Below the pieces are notes generated by a model. That model made no database searches, was not told the DNA's origin, and saw nothing but the letters and a program-made list of their open reading frames with translations. Below, piece by piece: positions 20,586-64,000 of a DNA stretch of 64,000 nt (the first letter of the stretch is position 1; each line of letters begins with the position of its first letter). Position numbers and translations under genes: made by a program. Source of the stretch: a virus (Duplodnaviria > Heunggongvirae > Uroviricota > Caudoviricetes > Thumleimavirales > Hafunaviridae); the IMG/VR virus record IMGVR_UViG_2595698612_000001, positions 10,520-74,519 of that record. The stretch is one strand, 5' to 3'.

Positions 20586-20810
20586 ATAAAGAACCACACA
20601 CCGTGGGTATATAAAACGGGGGGTGTCGGGTGGGACTTTATTTCCCATCATTCGGTTGTGGAAACGCGGTGATACACGCACGGCATACGGGGCTATACCC
20701 CCTATTTATTTATAAGCAGAGTTGGTAGTAGAGGGTACAGAGGCACGCAGAAGGGGTAGTTACCGGCAAAGGTAGCCCCTTTCAGGGCCGAAGGCCACCT
20801 CGGTAAAGCG

Positions 20811-20857
20811 CGTCCTTGGTAAGGACGAGAGCGGGGGTTCAAATCCCCCCTCAGGCT
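20811..20857 (+). other. tRNA-Thr(GGU)-like 3' half (anticodon arm to acceptor 3' strand); candidate attP core
   Basis: CGTCC-TTGGTAA-GGACG anticodon arm and GGGGG-TTCAAAT-CCCCC T-arm are present. The 5' half does not fold as a tRNA. Lies immediately upstream of the integrase. Confidence 0.4.
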
Positions 20858-41903: not shown

Positions 41904-41976
41904 CGCCGAGGACGGGACTCGAACCTGTGGCTACCTGATTAACAGTCAGGCGCTCTACCAACTGAGCTACCTCGGC
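41904..41976 (-). tRNA. tRNA-Asn(GUU)
   Basis: GCCGAGG acceptor, D-arm GCTC-AGTTGGTAG-AGCG, anticodon arm CCTGA-CTGTTAA-TCAGG, T-loop TTCGAGT; acceptor ends complementary. Confidence 0.85.
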
Positions 41977-43115: not shown

Positions 43116-43186
43116 ATGCGACCGGAGGGAATCGAACCCTCGTTGGCGGCTTGGAAGGCCGCCGTGATACCACTACACTACGGTCG
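43116..43186 (-). tRNA. tRNA-Gly(UCC)
   Basis: GCGACCG acceptor, D-arm TAGTGTAGTGGTATCAC, anticodon arm GCGGC-CTTCCAA-GCCGC, T-arm GAGGG-TTCGATT-CCCTC, 3' CGGTCGC-A. Confidence 0.85.
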
Positions 43187-43196
43187 CAAAACGGAG

Positions 43197-52876: not shown

Positions 52877-52955
52877 TTCTTAGAAGGTTCTGGTCAGCTC
52901 GTCACAGCCGGGGCGACCAACTCCCGACGACGCCCCAAAGTGGGGCGTTTCGCCG

Positions 52956-54955: not shown

Positions 54956-55195
54956 AGTAGACTCGTTGTTTGCTCCTCCGCCTTTCCGTGGCTGGCATCA
55001 TCAGACTACCCGAACCACCGGGTAGTGACACCCCTCGATGGGGTGTTTCGCCATTAGAATATCTCAGGTCGAACTACCTCGAACACGATTATCGCAATCC
55101 AGAGAACGAAGGACGCAAGAAGAACCTCAGCAGGAATCATACCGGGACAGCGGCCCCGCCGCCACCCCGTCGCTTGAAGAACTCTCGTAGGAGGT

Positions 55196-60879: not shown

Positions 60880-61010
60880 TACTCGCTATCCTCACTATCC
60901 GCCGCGTTCAGCGCCGCTAACTTGTCCATCTCCCTCCGGTAATCCTCGTCGCTCAGAGGGTTGGTCAGACTACCAGCGCCGCCGCTACGTCGTGGATACT
61001 CTCGTCCCAT
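60879..61010 (-). CDS. small protein (43 aa, not in track)
   Basis: MGREYPRRSGGAGSLTNPLSDEDYRREMDKLAALNAADSEDSE. ATG preceded by GAGTGACACCT as in copy A. Confidence 0.3.
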   Translation of the reverse strand: MGREYPRRSGGAGSLTNPLSDEDYRREMDKLAALNAADSEDSE

Positions 61011-61022
61011 AGGTGTCACTCA

Positions 61023-61083
61023 CGGTAGCCGTTGCTACCGAAGGCCCTTCCGGGGAGTCGAACCCCGGTGTCGCCACTAAGGG
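61023..61083 (-). ncRNA. tRNA top-half-like structured leader element, copy B (CGGTAG/CTACCG hairpin + outer stem CCCTT/AAGGG enclosing CCGGGG-TTCGACT-CCCCGG)
   Basis: Same architecture and conserved loop/linker (AGTGGCG) as copy A, with covarying stems. Confidence 0.5.
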
Positions 61084-61112
61084 TTAATGAAGCGTCTTTG
61101 AGTCTTTGCGCC

Positions 61113-62012
61113 TTACTCGGAGTTTTCGAGCAACTGCTGAAGGAGTGCGTCCTTCTCGCGCTGGCTCATCTCACTCACGTCGGGAACCTCCGGCTCGGGA
61201 AGTTCGACGTGTTCCTCGTAGTCCTCGTAGTTGATACTAACCTCATTCTCCACGATGAACTGAAGGAACGTCTCCCCGAGGTTGTTCCCGATACCCTTCA
61301 CTTCCGTAGGGTCGAAAAGGTCGTCGGGGAGGTCGAGGCCGGTGTCACTCTCGCCGTCGCTACCGCTACCGCCGTTGTTCTTATCGCTCGTTTCCGCCGT
61401 CTCATCGACTTCGACTTCTCCGAAGTAGTCACTCAGAAGGGTCTTGAGGCGTTCCTCGGCTTCCTCGTAAGTCGGGACGCTCCCGACCTCGAAGCCATCC
61501 GCCGCCTCTTGACGACCTTCACTTGCCACTACCGGGACAATCGGCTCCCCGTCGCTGTTGATGGGAACCATCACGGTGTCACTTGCCTCGATGATTTCCT
61601 GACTGAGCAGTAGCTCACGCTGGAACTCATCGACCTCACCGAGAGGCTTCACACCGAATCCGCCGTTTTCCTCCTCTAAGGAGGCGTACTTGCCACTAAA
61701 GGCGTTGTAGTCGTTGGCGGTGTAGTCGGTGGACAGGAAGAACGCCCTCCCGAGAGAGCCGTCGCTATCGTTTGCTTCGCACGGCTCAATCAGGTTCACA
61801 TTCCGGGGCGCTTCACACCACTTAGCGATGTCACTCTCGCCGCCCTTCTTCACAGAATCCTCTCCGAACGCCTTACGCACTTCGTGGGCAAGGCTCACGA
61901 TGGAGTGGTCGTCCTTCTGAAGAAGGTCGTAGAGGTCGCTAACAGGGTTAGCGCCGAGGGTGTTCACCGTGTTCTCAACGAAGTCGCCGTCGCTGTTGAC
62001 TTTCACAGACAT
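61113..62012 (-). CDS. hypothetical acidic protein with helix-hairpin-helix motif (start trimmed to MSVKVNSDGDF, ~299 aa)
   Basis: DPTEVKGIGNNLGETF matches an HhH DNA-binding motif. First gene of the long leftward array. Confidence 0.5.
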   Translation of the reverse strand: MSVKVNSDGDFVENTVNTLGANPVSDLYDLLQKDDHSIVSLAHEVRKAFGEDSVKKGGESDIAKWCEAPRNVNLIEPCEANDSDGSLGRAFFLSTDYTANDYNAFSGKYASLEEENGGFGVKPLGEVDEFQRELLLSQEIIEASDTVMVPINSDGEPIVPVVASEGRQEAADGFEVGSVPTYEEAEERLKTLLSDYFGEVEVDETAETSDKNNGGSGSDGESDTGLDLPDDLFDPTEVKGIGNNLGETFLQFIVENEVSINYEDYEEHVELPEPEVPDVSEMSQREKDALLQQLLENSE

Positions 62013-62069
62013 AGTTCGTTGGGTGTCACTTAGTGCTACTTTCCGAGGGGGAAGCACCAAACCCCCCAT

Positions 62070-64000
62070 TCCGACAAATCGGAGTGAGAATTGTTCTCAC
62101 TCACGACTGTCGTGGTTTGCTTAGCGAGGGTCTTAGACCCTCAAAGCACTACCCGTCAATCGGGTTCAGCTTACGCTGGAACCTTTACGTCTATCCTTCC
62201 CCGCCCCTTACGGGACGGGCCGAACATACTAACGAGCGTTTTAAACGTGACACTCATCCCTCAAAGCCGACTGCTATACGCTACGCTGTGCGAACGTTTC
62301 GCTATGCGAGTTTCAAGCCTCAAAGAGTCTTTCGCGTTATTCGCTATGAGCATTTGCTCTTGACTACTACGTACTTCTCCCTACGAACCTGTTTTATGGC
62401 ATAGACTTTCAGTCCATAGGCTAAGCACCTATTGTTTTAACCGCAACCGCAACCGAAAGTGGGCGGGATTCACGTTTCCATAGATGTATCTAATACATCC
62501 GGTTCGACAGTTTCGAGACGTTAATCGCTCGATGTGTCTATTTTCGTCACTCTTTGCCCTAAGGGTCGCTCTTTGTCCGGGCCATACTCCCCCTGTTACC
62601 TGAAAATACACACCGAAACACCGTGTTTCGGTTTCCGACCGACATACCGGGGCGGGGCCGCTTTCGCGGGCCGTCCCGTTCGGGCCGTACTTCAAACGTA
62701 ACACCGGGAAAGGCGTTTGGGGCCGCGCTATGCTACCTTTGAGGTTATCGCCGGACTCACGCGGGGCCTTTCCTTTGTCGTATCAGGGGCGGGGCCGGTT
62801 TCACGGTTACAAACCGTTTCGCCGGGCCGCCCCCTCTTTCCCGCCCCGGCCCCTAAGGGCCGGTAAATCTCCCCCGTACTAAGACGGGCCTATGTGGTTT
62901 AGGGCCGTTTCGGGACGCTTTCGGGTTATCTCCCCGTCTCTCGGGGAATTGTCGGTTAATCCGACGTTTCCGTACTAACGAACCTACTAAGAATCCCGGC
63001 CCCGGTATCCACACCGGGGTTTCCGGCCCCTAAGGGCCGTTTCACCGTGAAAGACGGGCCGTTTCCGGCCCCGTCTCCTACATTCCGTAAGGGTCAATTC
63101 GGCGTTTGTTCCGTCTCTCGGGGCGGCCCGTAACAGGGGCCGAAACCCGAGAGAACTACCAAACACGTACTTACCCGCCCCCGACCGTTCGGGGGGAGAT
63201 TAGCGGTAATTCCGTTTGAAGGTGGCAACGTACTAACGGAAACATCCAACGGGGGGCGCATATGGCAACGCCCCCGGAAAGCGGGACTTAAACCGCTTTT
63301 CCGGTGTTTCCGGGCCTTTTACGCCGGGGAGTGTATCCCCCGGCCCATTTCAGGGGGCCGCCGTCCCGGTTAACATCAAACCGGGGCGGGCCGCCTTTCG
63401 CCGGGCGACATTCAACCAGAATACCCGGTTTCATATAAACCCGTCGATTTGGATTAGTATATAAAGACGGGAAACACCGGAAACGCCGAACGTGAAGGGT
63501 ACAAGCCTCGATGCGGTAAAACACGGAAAACACAAAAGAGGGAGATATACCCGATTATGGGATAGGGTAGGGGGGCCGAACGGGACGGACACACCGGGAC
63601 ACACCAAAAAGACGGGACACACCGGGACGGACACACAAGAAACGGGCCGTAGTTGCCTTTCCCGGCGTTTTCAGGGGCCGGGGGATACCGGGATACGGCC
63701 CGTATGGACACACCGGGGAGACGGACATACGGCCCCCGCGCGGGACGAGAGACGGGACGGGACGGGCCGGGCCGGGCCGGGACGAGAGACGGCCCCAGTA
63801 GGGACGGACACACCGGGGCCGGGGCCGGGGCCGGGGCCGGGGCCGGGACGGGGGCCGACCGGGACACATCAGCAGGCAGGCGGGACGCCCGCGCGTAGGG
63901 CGGCCAACAACGCCAATATCCGAGGGTACAAGCCCCAACGAAGGGGCGGGGACGGCCCCCGGTTAGAACATTAAGGTACATTCCGCACACGAGCTTTAGT
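62070..64000. repeat. ~1.9-kb non-coding region dense in inverted repeats, direct repeats and G-rich iterons; candidate replication origin / control or packaging region
   Basis: No credible ORFs (only Pro/Arg/Gly-rich GC-artefact frames). Inverted repeats: GAGTGAGAA-ttg-TTCTCACTC, CCGAAACAC-cg-GTGTTTCGG, GATGTAT-ctaa-ATACATC. CCTCAAAG occurs 3 times. GGGGCGGGGCCG-N-TTTCRCGG occurs 3 times. CGTACTAACG occurs twice. GGGAC(GG)ACACACC repeats. Confidence 0.6.
63815..63847. repeat. (GGGGCC)n hexamer tandem array, ~5.5 copies; nearby (GGGCC)3 at 63764-63782
   Basis: Seen directly; G4-forming potential. Confidence 0.7.

Follow-up and report, generated by a model that had tools for sequence, protein, structure and literature searches.

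What, then, does a virus keep in two kilobases of gene-free DNA at the end of its genome? This question is raised by positions 62013-64000 of a stretch of 64,000 nucleotides (hereafter the window, whose coordinates are used throughout) from the IMG/VR virus record IMGVR_UViG_2595698612_000001. These 1988 bp are 100% identical to positions 72532-74519 of the record of Halorubrum tailed virus 8 (HRTV-8, KC292020.1), a salt-lake archaeal virus of the HF1/HF2 group (Hafunaviridae, Haloferacalesvirus) with a linear genome of 74519 bp; therefore, window position 64000 is the physical right end of the HRTV-8 genome. The HRTV-8 record has no annotation past gene 128, which ends at 62069, and no gene between the tract and the terminus. 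The region consists of the 5' edge of gene 128, a unique tract of 1642 bp (62013-63654) and the direct terminal repeat (DTR) in its right copy, and four parts follow one another in it: a gene-proximal zone, an 800-nt array of hairpins, an AT-rich block with TATA boxes, and G-rich repeats with one-orientation motifs around the DTR. A preliminary description of the window had missed that the genome ends here, and its several direct-repeat families are not the dominant feature, which is the array of covarying hairpins. By analogy with T7 and T5, we suggest that the region may be a composite cis control region at the early-gene ('leading') terminus, a reading to which we give a probability of about one half.

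The hairpin array (62613-63392, unstranded) comprises about 20 short GC-rich stem-loops that are kept by compensatory evolution. When a perfect hairpin is defined by a stem of at least 6 bp and a loop of 3-10, there are 15 in 62600-63425 (826 nt), compared with 1.8 +/- 1.4 in composition-matched shuffles (n=200, maximum 6). The remainder of the window has 2.9 perfect hairpins per kb, about one sixth of the array density, and no second 826-nt stretch in the 64 kb approaches that density. The inverted repeats noticed earlier are thus confirmed, and they form the sole hotspot of the window. Folded as single-stranded DNA, the array zone has a z score of -5.3 and a coding control of the same length one of -2.9, and consensus folding of the alignment gives z from -4 to -9.6 across the array zone and near zero in the DTR.

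The stems differ between viruses in sequence and remain paired. For example, the stem at 62613-62631 occurs as CCGAAAC/GTTTCGG, CCGTGGG/CCCACGG and CCGGAAA/TTTCCGG, and that at 63278-63299 as AAAGCGG/CCGCTTT, AAAGTGG/CCACTTT and AAGCCGG/CCGGCTT. With a Watson-Crick-only consensus, 50 of the 188 pairs in the array are compensatory on both sides, compared with 5 of 221 in the equally conserved gene 128. In two array blocks, 97.4% and 97.8% of the cells are paired, against 37-60% when the partners are slid, and 25 and 15 pairs (40 in total) have changed on both sides, against 1-9 for slid partners, a level that 0 of 500 shuffles attained. In two held-out metagenome lineages, 125 of 129 pairs and 88 of 115 pairs are retained, and new types of compensatory pair are added. 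As a structure, therefore, the array stems are kept folded by selection while their sequence drifts, which argues that the hairpins act as folded single strands. It is possible, and we put it forward tentatively, that the array is an undescribed viral cis-element of the hafunaviruses that is defined by its structure, with at least 20 hairpins about 30-50 nt apart functioning as a folded single strand.

Could the tract encode a protein instead? In a MAFFT alignment of 13 genomes, the adjoining gene 128, taken as coding control, is codon-periodic (141/41/53 variable columns in the three phases, p=4e-23) with indels of 3n only, whereas the tract 62013-63654 shows no periodicity (228/250/232, p=0.35) and 57 of its 65 indel events are not multiples of 3. 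The translations of the listed open reading frames (ORFs) of the tract are basic and R/P/G-rich. Those annotated in the homologous tract of HSTV-3, HRTV-15 and HJTV-2 have a pI of 10-11.7 and 2-3% D+E, compared with a pI of 4.1 and 24% acidic residues in the true neighbour protein, and their frames are interrupted by indels among four strains. Cryptic protein coding is ruled out by the absent periodicity, the frame-breaking indels and the basic, non-halophilic translations, and the earlier remark that no plausible ORF is present stands. The idea of a decayed copy of gene 106 of the sister genus Mincapvirus was also rejected, since a tblastn search of that protein against the window gave no match in the tract. 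The four to five ORFs annotated inside the tract in related genomes are almost certainly not genes:

HSTV-3 gp126-gp129 (locus L015, 1558-3175; likewise in L016 and L017): doubtful ORFs with pI 10-11.7 and broken frames
HRTV5_122 (locus L011, 2693-3028): doubtful ORF annotated inside the homologous tract or DTR, judged by position only

As regards gene 128 itself, the HRTV-8 record starts it at 62069 (MGGLVLPPRK...), and a conserved ATG lies at 62012 (MSVKV...), as annotated in Serpecor1. The N-terminal extension 62013-62069 has 1-nt indels among the relatives, and the start in the HRTV-8 record is probably 19 codons too early.

Though non-coding, the unique tract is about as conserved as the neighbouring gene, with identities to HRTV-8 of 74-88% for the tract, 82-90% for gene 128 and 44-65% for the DTR. 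The region is found at the same genome end in 41 phage records, all of them Hafunaviridae and most full-length at 80-87% identity. A divergent subgroup (HSTV-4, HSTV-3, HRTV-15 and HJTV-2; four genomes 95-99% identical, within which periodicity and covariation tests are powerless) retains 61113-62615 as well as the patches 62671-62734, 63168-63270 and 63456-63526 at 74-82%, and the DTR from 30 nt ahead of its edge (about 66-74% over the DTR). In wider searches, IMG/VR gave the same isolates only, the GTDB scan gave only three chance matches in unrelated bacteria, a first metagenome pattern gave no match, and a second gave five contigs that represent two extra lineages. HF1 and HF2 are deposited reversed, and the region forms their left end, where the DTR takes up 1-306 and the 'putative nick site' 305-310 and the first coding sequence starts at 1970. 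When reversed, this left end is 82% identical over the 1988 bp and shares with HRTV-8 the DTR column, the ORF-free tract (about 1.66 kb) and the first early gene; it differs in the DTR, which has 306 bp in HF2 and 346 in HRTV-8, and in the sequence at its edge, ...GTACTT/ACC in HF2 and CGGGCCGTAGTT/GCC in HRTV-8 (here and below, a slash within a boundary sequence marks the edge).

At the terminus, the same sequence occurs in direct orientation at both physical ends (record 1-346 and window 63655-64000), and the length of 346 bp is also given for HRTV-8 in Table 2 of PMC7230728. The earlier proposal of a terminal-repeat region is therefore right for 63655-64000. The features at this end are as follows:

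63572-63640 (+ strand): purine-rich tandem repeats GGGAC(GG)ACACAC(C), the fourth repeat family of the preliminary description; the unit varies (GGAGAGACGG etc.) and the character is kept
63643-63654 (+ strand): motif at the DTR boundary, CGGGCCGTAGTT (consensus CGGGCCGTACTT), homologous to the site that HF2 has annotated as 'putative nick site in genome replication'
63655-64000 (unstranded): right copy of the 346-bp DTR, 100% identical to record 1-346, the least conserved part
63754-63863 (+ strand only): G-quadruplex-prone (GGGAC/GGGCC)n with (GGGGCC)5
63961-64000 (+ strand): terminal sequence GGTTAGAACATT...TTTAGT, the same in 17 of 17 haloferacalesvirus genomes; Mincapvirus ends in TTTGGT

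A comparison with the genome termini of related viruses, as proposed earlier, places the inner DTR boundary on one and the same alignment column, after CGGGCCGTA(C/G)TT, in HRTV-8, Serpecor1, HF2, HRTV-5 and VOLN27B, whose DTRs of 271-346 bp had their lengths determined independently. Of 22 genomes, 20 have G-quadruplex (G4) motifs on the + strand and none has any on the - strand; the other 63.3 kb of HRTV-8 contain 1 (+) and 1 (-). The last 550 nt are G-/purine-rich on the + strand in 22 of 22 genomes (G 0.33-0.43, C 0.22-0.30); the DTR is thus variable in sequence and constant in character. HF2 has been reported to form concatemers that are cut precisely (PMC8707807, PMC7230728), and one metagenome contig (L037) passes from the tract through a single DTR copy to beyond the terminus, as expected of a collapsed junction.

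Some further observations concern the genome ends. Just inside the left DTR copy of HRTV-8 (locus L003, 347-380) lies a hairpin, CCTCAGA-ATTTTCCCA-TCTGAGG. The left junction reads TTTAGT/AAGT, with GTAAGT across the edge as in HF2, and the other HRTV-8 edge, AGTTGC, is not an exact inverted copy of the GTAAGT edge, unlike in HF2. The contigs Ga0207851_100011 (L033, 193 kb) and JGI12330J12834_1000001 (L036, 161 kb) are 2-2.5x the genome length and carry the region. L036 begins inside the DTR, and either contig may represent an integrated provirus, an assembled concatemer or a chimera of related viruses.

Does the array occur beyond the genus? In HRTV-7 of the genus Mincapvirus (genome identity about 53%), no similarity to the tract of HRTV-8 can be detected. 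The parts at its end stand in the same order: a DTR of 340 bp with GGTACAA/GCCC at the edge, AGTATATAAACCCCC 463 nt away from the terminus, a densely packed array of hairpins, and 1.5 kb free of ORFs. The densest part of the array lies in HRTV7_106 (locus L027, 2619-3380; homologues L029-L032), with 23 perfect hairpins in 762 nt, or 30 per kb. HRTV7_106 is a real gene of 253 aa with a pI of 4.3, a periodicity of 61/34/30 (p=3e-4, five genomes) and 3n indels only; its protein has no Pfam match. Conserved stems take up 62% of its columns, and variation is 12.5% in paired versus 22.3% in unpaired columns. Many of its hairpins have CTTCGG or CTTACG loops, and AACTCCTTACGGAGTT occurs twice, encoding ELRKEF twice. 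Consequently, a hairpin array at this end characterises the family, whatever its sequence and whether or not it is coding.

On the other side of the array, the gene-proximal zone (62013 to about 62600) was read on the - strand, the early-gene sense, in an alignment of 12 genomes. It contains:

62013-62220 (- strand): putative 5' leader of gene 128, about 205 nt, with covarying hairpins; its start is placed from the position of the TATA box
62128-62146 (- strand): leader hairpin GAGGGTC-TAA-GACCCTC, which holds CCTCAAAG copy 1 (62139-62146)
62195-62217 (- strand): leader hairpin CCCGTCCC-GTAA-GGGGCGGG, with the GNRA-type loop GTAA conserved in the sense RNA
62240-62246 (- strand): TATA box TTTAAAA within CACGTTTAAAACG, some 230 nt upstream of the first early gene, whose promoter it may form
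62318-62332 (- strand): invariant AAAGACTCTTTGAGG element, CCTCAAAG copy 3, resembling 'alpha' of the HF2 class I repeats
62483-62499 (unstranded): covarying palindrome or hairpin GATGTAT-CTA-ATACATC, replaced in most relatives by GCTGTC-CTTAG-CGACAGC
62546-62575 (unstranded): two CAAAGAG(C/T)GAC repeats (- strand) around CCCTAAGGG, identical in 12 of 12 genomes including the divergent subgroup; a probable protein-binding site

The stem with the GTAA loop is swapped for CCACGGC/GCCGTGG in HCTV-7 and for CCCCGGT/ACCGGGG in HSTV-4 and HJTV-2, with the loop kept, and the other leader hairpin has the compensatory variants GTCGGTC/GACCGAC (VOLN27B) and ACGGGGC/GCCCCGT (HSTV-4). TTTAAAA within CACGTTTAAAACG is invariant in 11 of 12 genomes, the divergent subgroup included, and ACGCGAAAGACTCTTTGAG (62336-62318) is identical in 12 of 12. 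TATA boxes of the haloarchaeal kind, that is, a conserved TTTAWA at a suitable distance upstream of a transcribed region, are found at 62246-62240 (TTTAAAA) and, as TTTATA/TATAAA, at 63434-63441 and 63458-63465.

Is this zone transcribed? In HF2, transcript F1 was detected with the most 5' RT-PCR primer, 1855-1868, and the coding sequence starts at 1970, so that the transcript reaches at least 115 nt upstream (HF2 supplement). The counterpart of the TATA box at 62240-62246 lies upstream of this primer and just downstream of the HF2 cloning primer 1712-1727. The 5' end of F1 must fall between HF2 1727 and 1855, and therefore the first early mRNA starts where the TATA box predicts. The equivalent end of HF2, 0-5 kb, is the immediate-early region (PMC7230728), and no transcription start site within HF2 1-1970 is reported in PMC8707807. 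That the first early gene is driven by this TATA box (62246) via a structured leader of about 205 nt, whose start we infer, is thus partly shown. The suggestion of a regulatory hub for leftward transcription has been strengthened by this invariant box, by F1 and by the immediate-early character of the HF2 end.

The HF2 repeats themselves are represented by fragments only. Neither the full class I consensus (56-58 bp: alpha, beta, gamma) nor the class II consensus (29 bp) occurs in the region, which has an alpha-like AAAGACTC at 62325-62332, comparable to the alpha motif CTAAAGACTTAGAA of the class I intergenic repeats (PMC8707807), and ATATAAACCC at 63433-63442. The 8-mers CTTTAAGT and CCCTTTAC were not seen in the region sequence or in the two regional alignments. 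Farther inward, in the gap between genes 127 and 128 (61044-61084, - strand), there is a tRNA-like acceptor/T-arm fragment, CGGGGTTCGACTCCCCG, with a sub-threshold mascRNA-like match of 25 bits. It adjoins the alpha-like motif GCAAAGACTCAAAGACG, and the HF2 equivalent, 2880-2937, was amplified for promoter-reporter cloning by the HF2 authors.

The AT-rich block (63425-63570) carries two further TATA boxes, 25 nt apart and about 540-570 nt from the terminus:

63432-63442 (unstranded): TATA box 1, CATATAAACCC (TTTATATG on the - strand), conserved in the genus
63456-63466 (unstranded): TATA box 2, AGTATATAAAG, unchanged in all 10 genomes aligned, those of the divergent subgroup among them

In each of 22 genomes from two genera, a GTATATAAA box is present at 393-600 nt from the right terminus, and most of these genomes have few other long AT runs in their last kilobase. 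The dips in GC content are modest: 47% in 63453-63572 and 43-47% in 62313-62552, for a genome of 57%. The HF2 class II repeat TATATAAACCCC is a proven promoter with about half its activity in reverse orientation (PMC8707807). Box 1, CATATAAACCC, shares ATATAAACCC with this late promoter (TATATAAACCCCTTTACC...), and the HRTV-7 box shares TATATAAACCCC with it, but the common part is only the TATA part of 8-12 nt and the rest of the 29-bp repeat is absent; by sequence, the terminal TATA boxes are not class II repeats. Mincapvirus synteny was considered for orienting the terminal box and is undermined, since HRTV-7 gene 106 has its own proximal CTTTAAGT promoter. In VOLN27B (locus L012, about 2510-2930, corresponding to window 63446), the two TATA boxes are separated by an insertion of 121 bp, and there is further AT-rich extra sequence.

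What has become of the direct repeats? All the motifs listed in the preliminary description are present, and nearly all are confined to the region, but most are arms of hairpins or copies of the DTR-boundary motif. CCTCAAAG has three copies on the + strand (62139, 62259, 62318) and one on the - strand (62737), and none elsewhere in the window. For GGGGCGGGGCCG-N-TTTCRCGG, three copies had been claimed; two are exact (62649, 62786) and one is a variant (63383), and they are the 5' arm plus loop of three hairpins rather than a class of their own. CGTACTAACG (62971, 63229) belongs to the boundary-motif (GTACTT-type) family, and GGGACGGACACAC has three copies (63582, 63624, 63801). Of GGGCCG/CGGCCC, 36 of the 104 occurrences in the window fall within these 2 kb.

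Some motifs occur in one orientation only: GGGCCGT 6x on the + strand and 0 on the - strand, CGGGCCGT 4x and 0, and GTA(C/G)T(T/A) with 7 of 7 copies on the + strand. Perfect hairpins feed both strands equally, and therefore hairpin symmetry cannot explain these motifs. The individual elements are:

62681-62692 (+ strand): exact internal copy of the boundary 12-mer CGGGCCGTACTT, in 12 of 13 genomes, within a patch kept in the divergent subgroup
63165-63175 (+ strand): ACGTACTTACC, a second, shorter internal boundary-like copy, which starts a patch kept in the divergent subgroup
63497-63526 (+ strand): GGGTACAAGCCTCGATGCGGTAAAACACGG, a near-invariant 30-nt block with the first GGTACAAGCC; its core GGTACAAGCCTCGATGCGGTAAAAC does not vary among the 10 aligned genomes
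63925-63934 (+ strand): second GGTACAAGCC, 73-76 nt from the terminus in 17 haloferacalesvirus genomes (79 nt in HF2)

The three CGTACTT copies are spaced by 480 nt (first to second) and 482 nt (second to boundary), and the starts of the intervals, compared by eye, give no sign of a duplication of about 480 bp behind this spacing. GGTACAAGCC has only these two occurrences in the window, both on the + strand, and in Mincapvirus the motif straddles the DTR boundary (GGTACAA/GCCC).

How could these parts work together? In T7, the left end has a short DTR, a non-coding stretch and host-polymerase promoters about 500-750 bp from the first-entering end; the genes follow in early, middle and late order from that end, and transcription pulls the genome in. 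The T7 concatemer is processed at the DTR edges, where junction transcription and a hairpin intermediate have been implicated. The likeness has limits, for the T7 stretch measures about 0.9 kb and contains three promoters but lacks a hairpin array, the junction hairpin of T7 lies on the side of the late genes, and T7 encodes its own RNA polymerase, which the HRTV-8-group viruses do not. The authors of the HF2 work also compare its DTR genome and its early/middle/late order with T7 (PMC8707807).

In HRTV-8, the repeat 63655-64000 has its inner edge fixed by CGGGCCGTA(C/G)TT and its outer edge by GGTTAGAACATT...TTTAGT. Judging from the HF2 work, the DTR edges would be the places where concatemers are nicked or cut and where the repeat is regenerated at packaging, and GGTACAAGCC, one copy before each edge, would form a recognition context together with GGGCCGT and the G-rich + strand. 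The TATA boxes at 63432-63466 may recruit the host RNA polymerase to the DNA that enters first and, by analogy with HF2 class II, probably fire both ways. The array would act as folded single strands, preferably as a structured non-coding immediate-early RNA or long leader in early-gene sense; alternatively, the hairpins may be extruded from DNA. The TATA box at 62246 would then serve the first early gene via its leader, with AAAGACTCTTTGAG and two copies of CAAAGAGYGAC upstream that resemble protein-binding sites.

For an RNA, it speaks that hairpins of the same kind extend into the leader, which is transcribed in HF2, one of them with a conserved GNRA loop on the sense strand, and that the Mincapvirus array lies within a transcribed gene. 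There is also a small lean to the - strand, with a summed consensus energy of -288.5 (-) versus -264 (+) kcal/mol and 18 (-) versus 6 (+) GNRA loops.

Several points weigh against the composite control region as set out here. A clear strand bias is missing, with G.U cells at 6.8% (+) versus 8.0% (-) and, in strict Watson-Crick helices, G.T versus A.C at 15 versus 20 (12 versus 22 with 16 genomes). The Watson-Crick upkeep is symmetrical, and therefore DNA hairpins or transcription of both strands fit as well as a sense RNA; an antisense transcript of HF2, R52, which runs toward this terminus, reaches at least position 1855 (HF2 supplement). In the literature on the relatives, no transcript is mapped over 62260-63654; the HF2 RT-PCR map stops at 1855, and the HF2 primer at 1712 is absent from the productive listing. 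Since HRTV-7 gene 106 has its own promoter, synteny does not fix the direction in which the terminal box fires, and it is from position and conservation that possible roles are assigned to GGTACAAGCC, GGGCCGT and the internal CGGGCCGTACTT. That this end enters first is likewise drawn from the early-gene position plus the T7 analogy.

Three lines of evidence were tried and set aside. Assigning the array to one strand by G.U wobble, tetraloop type and folding energy failed, the lean to the - strand being small and non-significant. No known RNA family was matched by the array: with the Rfam 15 covariance models, 61000-64000 gave only two sub-threshold matches at chance level and none at gathering level, and the gathering-level matches of the whole window are all outside the region. 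The transcriptome of HRTV-DL1 was set aside since HRTV-DL1 is not a relative.

Could the region be a replication origin instead, with the hairpins and the AT-rich block acting as DNA? This was a leading suggestion of the preliminary description, and it is neither supported nor refuted; we keep it as a rival that we regard as unlikely. In one version, the TATATAAAG box would fire rightward into the G4-prone + strand, and an R-loop would prime synthesis, in likeness to ColE1, T4 and the mitochondrial LSP/CSB; in another, extruded hairpins would be loading signals for the viral primase/helicase. The strict Watson-Crick upkeep of the stems, which shows no strand bias, would suit such a function, as would the AT-rich block (47% GC) between GC-rich flanks and the position of the region between divergently oriented gene arms in a concatemer or circular map. 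The purine/G skew also flips at about 63450, just downstream of the TATA boxes, in 22 genomes of two genera despite the poor conservation of the DTR. However, the idea of an ORB-type origin was set aside, since three patterns of ORB cores (TCCA..GGAAAC-type) gave no match in the window, and the modest enrichment of GGAAAC/GTTTCC is mostly due to hairpin arms. There is no iteron-type motif and no initiator or other origin-binding gene beside the tract, gene 128 being without a Pfam match. The minimum of the cumulative skew merely tracks gene orientation, and the R-loop version is without direct support. In T7-type genomes, moreover, the primary origin is internal. For this virus group, no mapped origin was found in the accessible literature.

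Equally doubtful is an accessory for packaging or concatemer resolution, in which GGGCCGT (x6), CGGGCCGTACTT (at 62681 and at the boundary) and GGTACAAGCC (x2) would be terminase or nickase sites and the hairpins processing intermediates. The one-strand bias of GGGCCGT (6/0) and CGGGCCGT (4/0), which goes beyond hairpin symmetry, points in this direction, and so do the exact internal copy of the boundary 12-mer and the fixed place of GGTACAAGCC, 73-76 nt from the terminus and at the Mincapvirus DTR boundary; the internal motif copies lie in the sole central patches that the divergent subgroup has kept. However, the terminase genes are at the opposite genome end, about 1 kb of hairpins far exceeds the known needs of pac or cos sites, and several of the GGGCCGT copies vary between relatives. 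Both this function and an origin are compatible with parts of the composite control region.

An entry gate as in T5 is very unlikely. In T5, an untranslated tract of 1662 bp lies at the inner edge of the terminal repeat (injection stop signal region). By this model, the HRTV-8 tract would stall or time the transfer of DNA once the first few hundred bp have entered, until the early products have been made. In architecture T5 is indeed the closest match, with a long, ORF-free and repeat-dense tract of conserved order, here 1642 bp, at the inner edge of a terminal repeat. In T5, however, the tract is mostly inside a repeat of 10 kb, with distal pre-early genes and DnaA boxes, whereas that of HRTV-8 lies outside a repeat of 346 bp and has no gene, early or other, distal to it. 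The paired DnaA boxes of the T5 model have no archaeal counterpart, as the host is without DnaA, and two-step transfer has never been reported for these viruses. The likeness to T5 is therefore one of architecture only, with no sequence relation and no membership. We know of no compensatory stem evolution shown for T5.

Finally, that the tract is a functionless spacer, whose palindromes were perfected by hairpin-templated quasi-palindrome correction in replication, would agree with the symmetrical, Watson-Crick-only compensation expected from template switching, but is hardly credible, because the unpaired linkers and loops are strongly conserved too, the conservation of the tract equals that of coding DNA, perfect hairpins are so few in the rest of the window, and a second genus, unrelated in sequence here, has the array at the corresponding end over a real gene, its paired columns being less variable, so that a neutral origin is strongly disfavoured.

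The DTR, its length of 346 bp and the idea of a nick site are already published, and the ORF-free gap is implicit in all annotations. The accessible literature on the HF1/HF2 group describes only the DTR, the nick site, F1 and the intergenic promoter repeats, although the accounts of 1995, 2002, 2004 and 2013 may comment further. Within this scope there is no mention of the hairpin array, its overprinting on a Mincapvirus gene, the terminal TATA boxes that the two genera share, the two GGTACAAGCC motifs, the boundary-motif copies inside the tract or the strand-specific G-richness.

Elsewhere in the window, two type II hammerhead ribozymes were identified at 54986-55053 (-) and 52889-52955 (-), with 51.2 and 45.4 bits, above the Rfam gathering threshold; they lie about 2 kb apart in the early/middle array, and a hammerhead has been mentioned for the HF1 group (PMC7230728). 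Two strong tRNA genes and one weak tRNA-like match (33 bits) are located at 41904-41976 (-), 43117-43187 (-) and 20787-20857 (+), and the weak match probably corresponds to the partial tRNA described in PMC8707807 as the attP of HF2.

What would the array mean for these viruses? Its fold outlasts its sequence, an unrelated array occupies the same place in a second genus, and there it constrains a protein sequence, all of which is unusual. If it is indeed a functional element, it could be a new origin or primer-loading zone, a transcription-coupled entry or timing device for a high-salt cytoplasm, or an anti-defence decoy RNA. HF1 infects the genetically tractable Haloferax volcanii, and work with compensatory mutations is therefore feasible. 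In this way, a tract of 2 kb gathers the best candidates for the start of infection, the start of replication and the cutting of concatemers, all of them essentially unmapped in archaeal tailed viruses.

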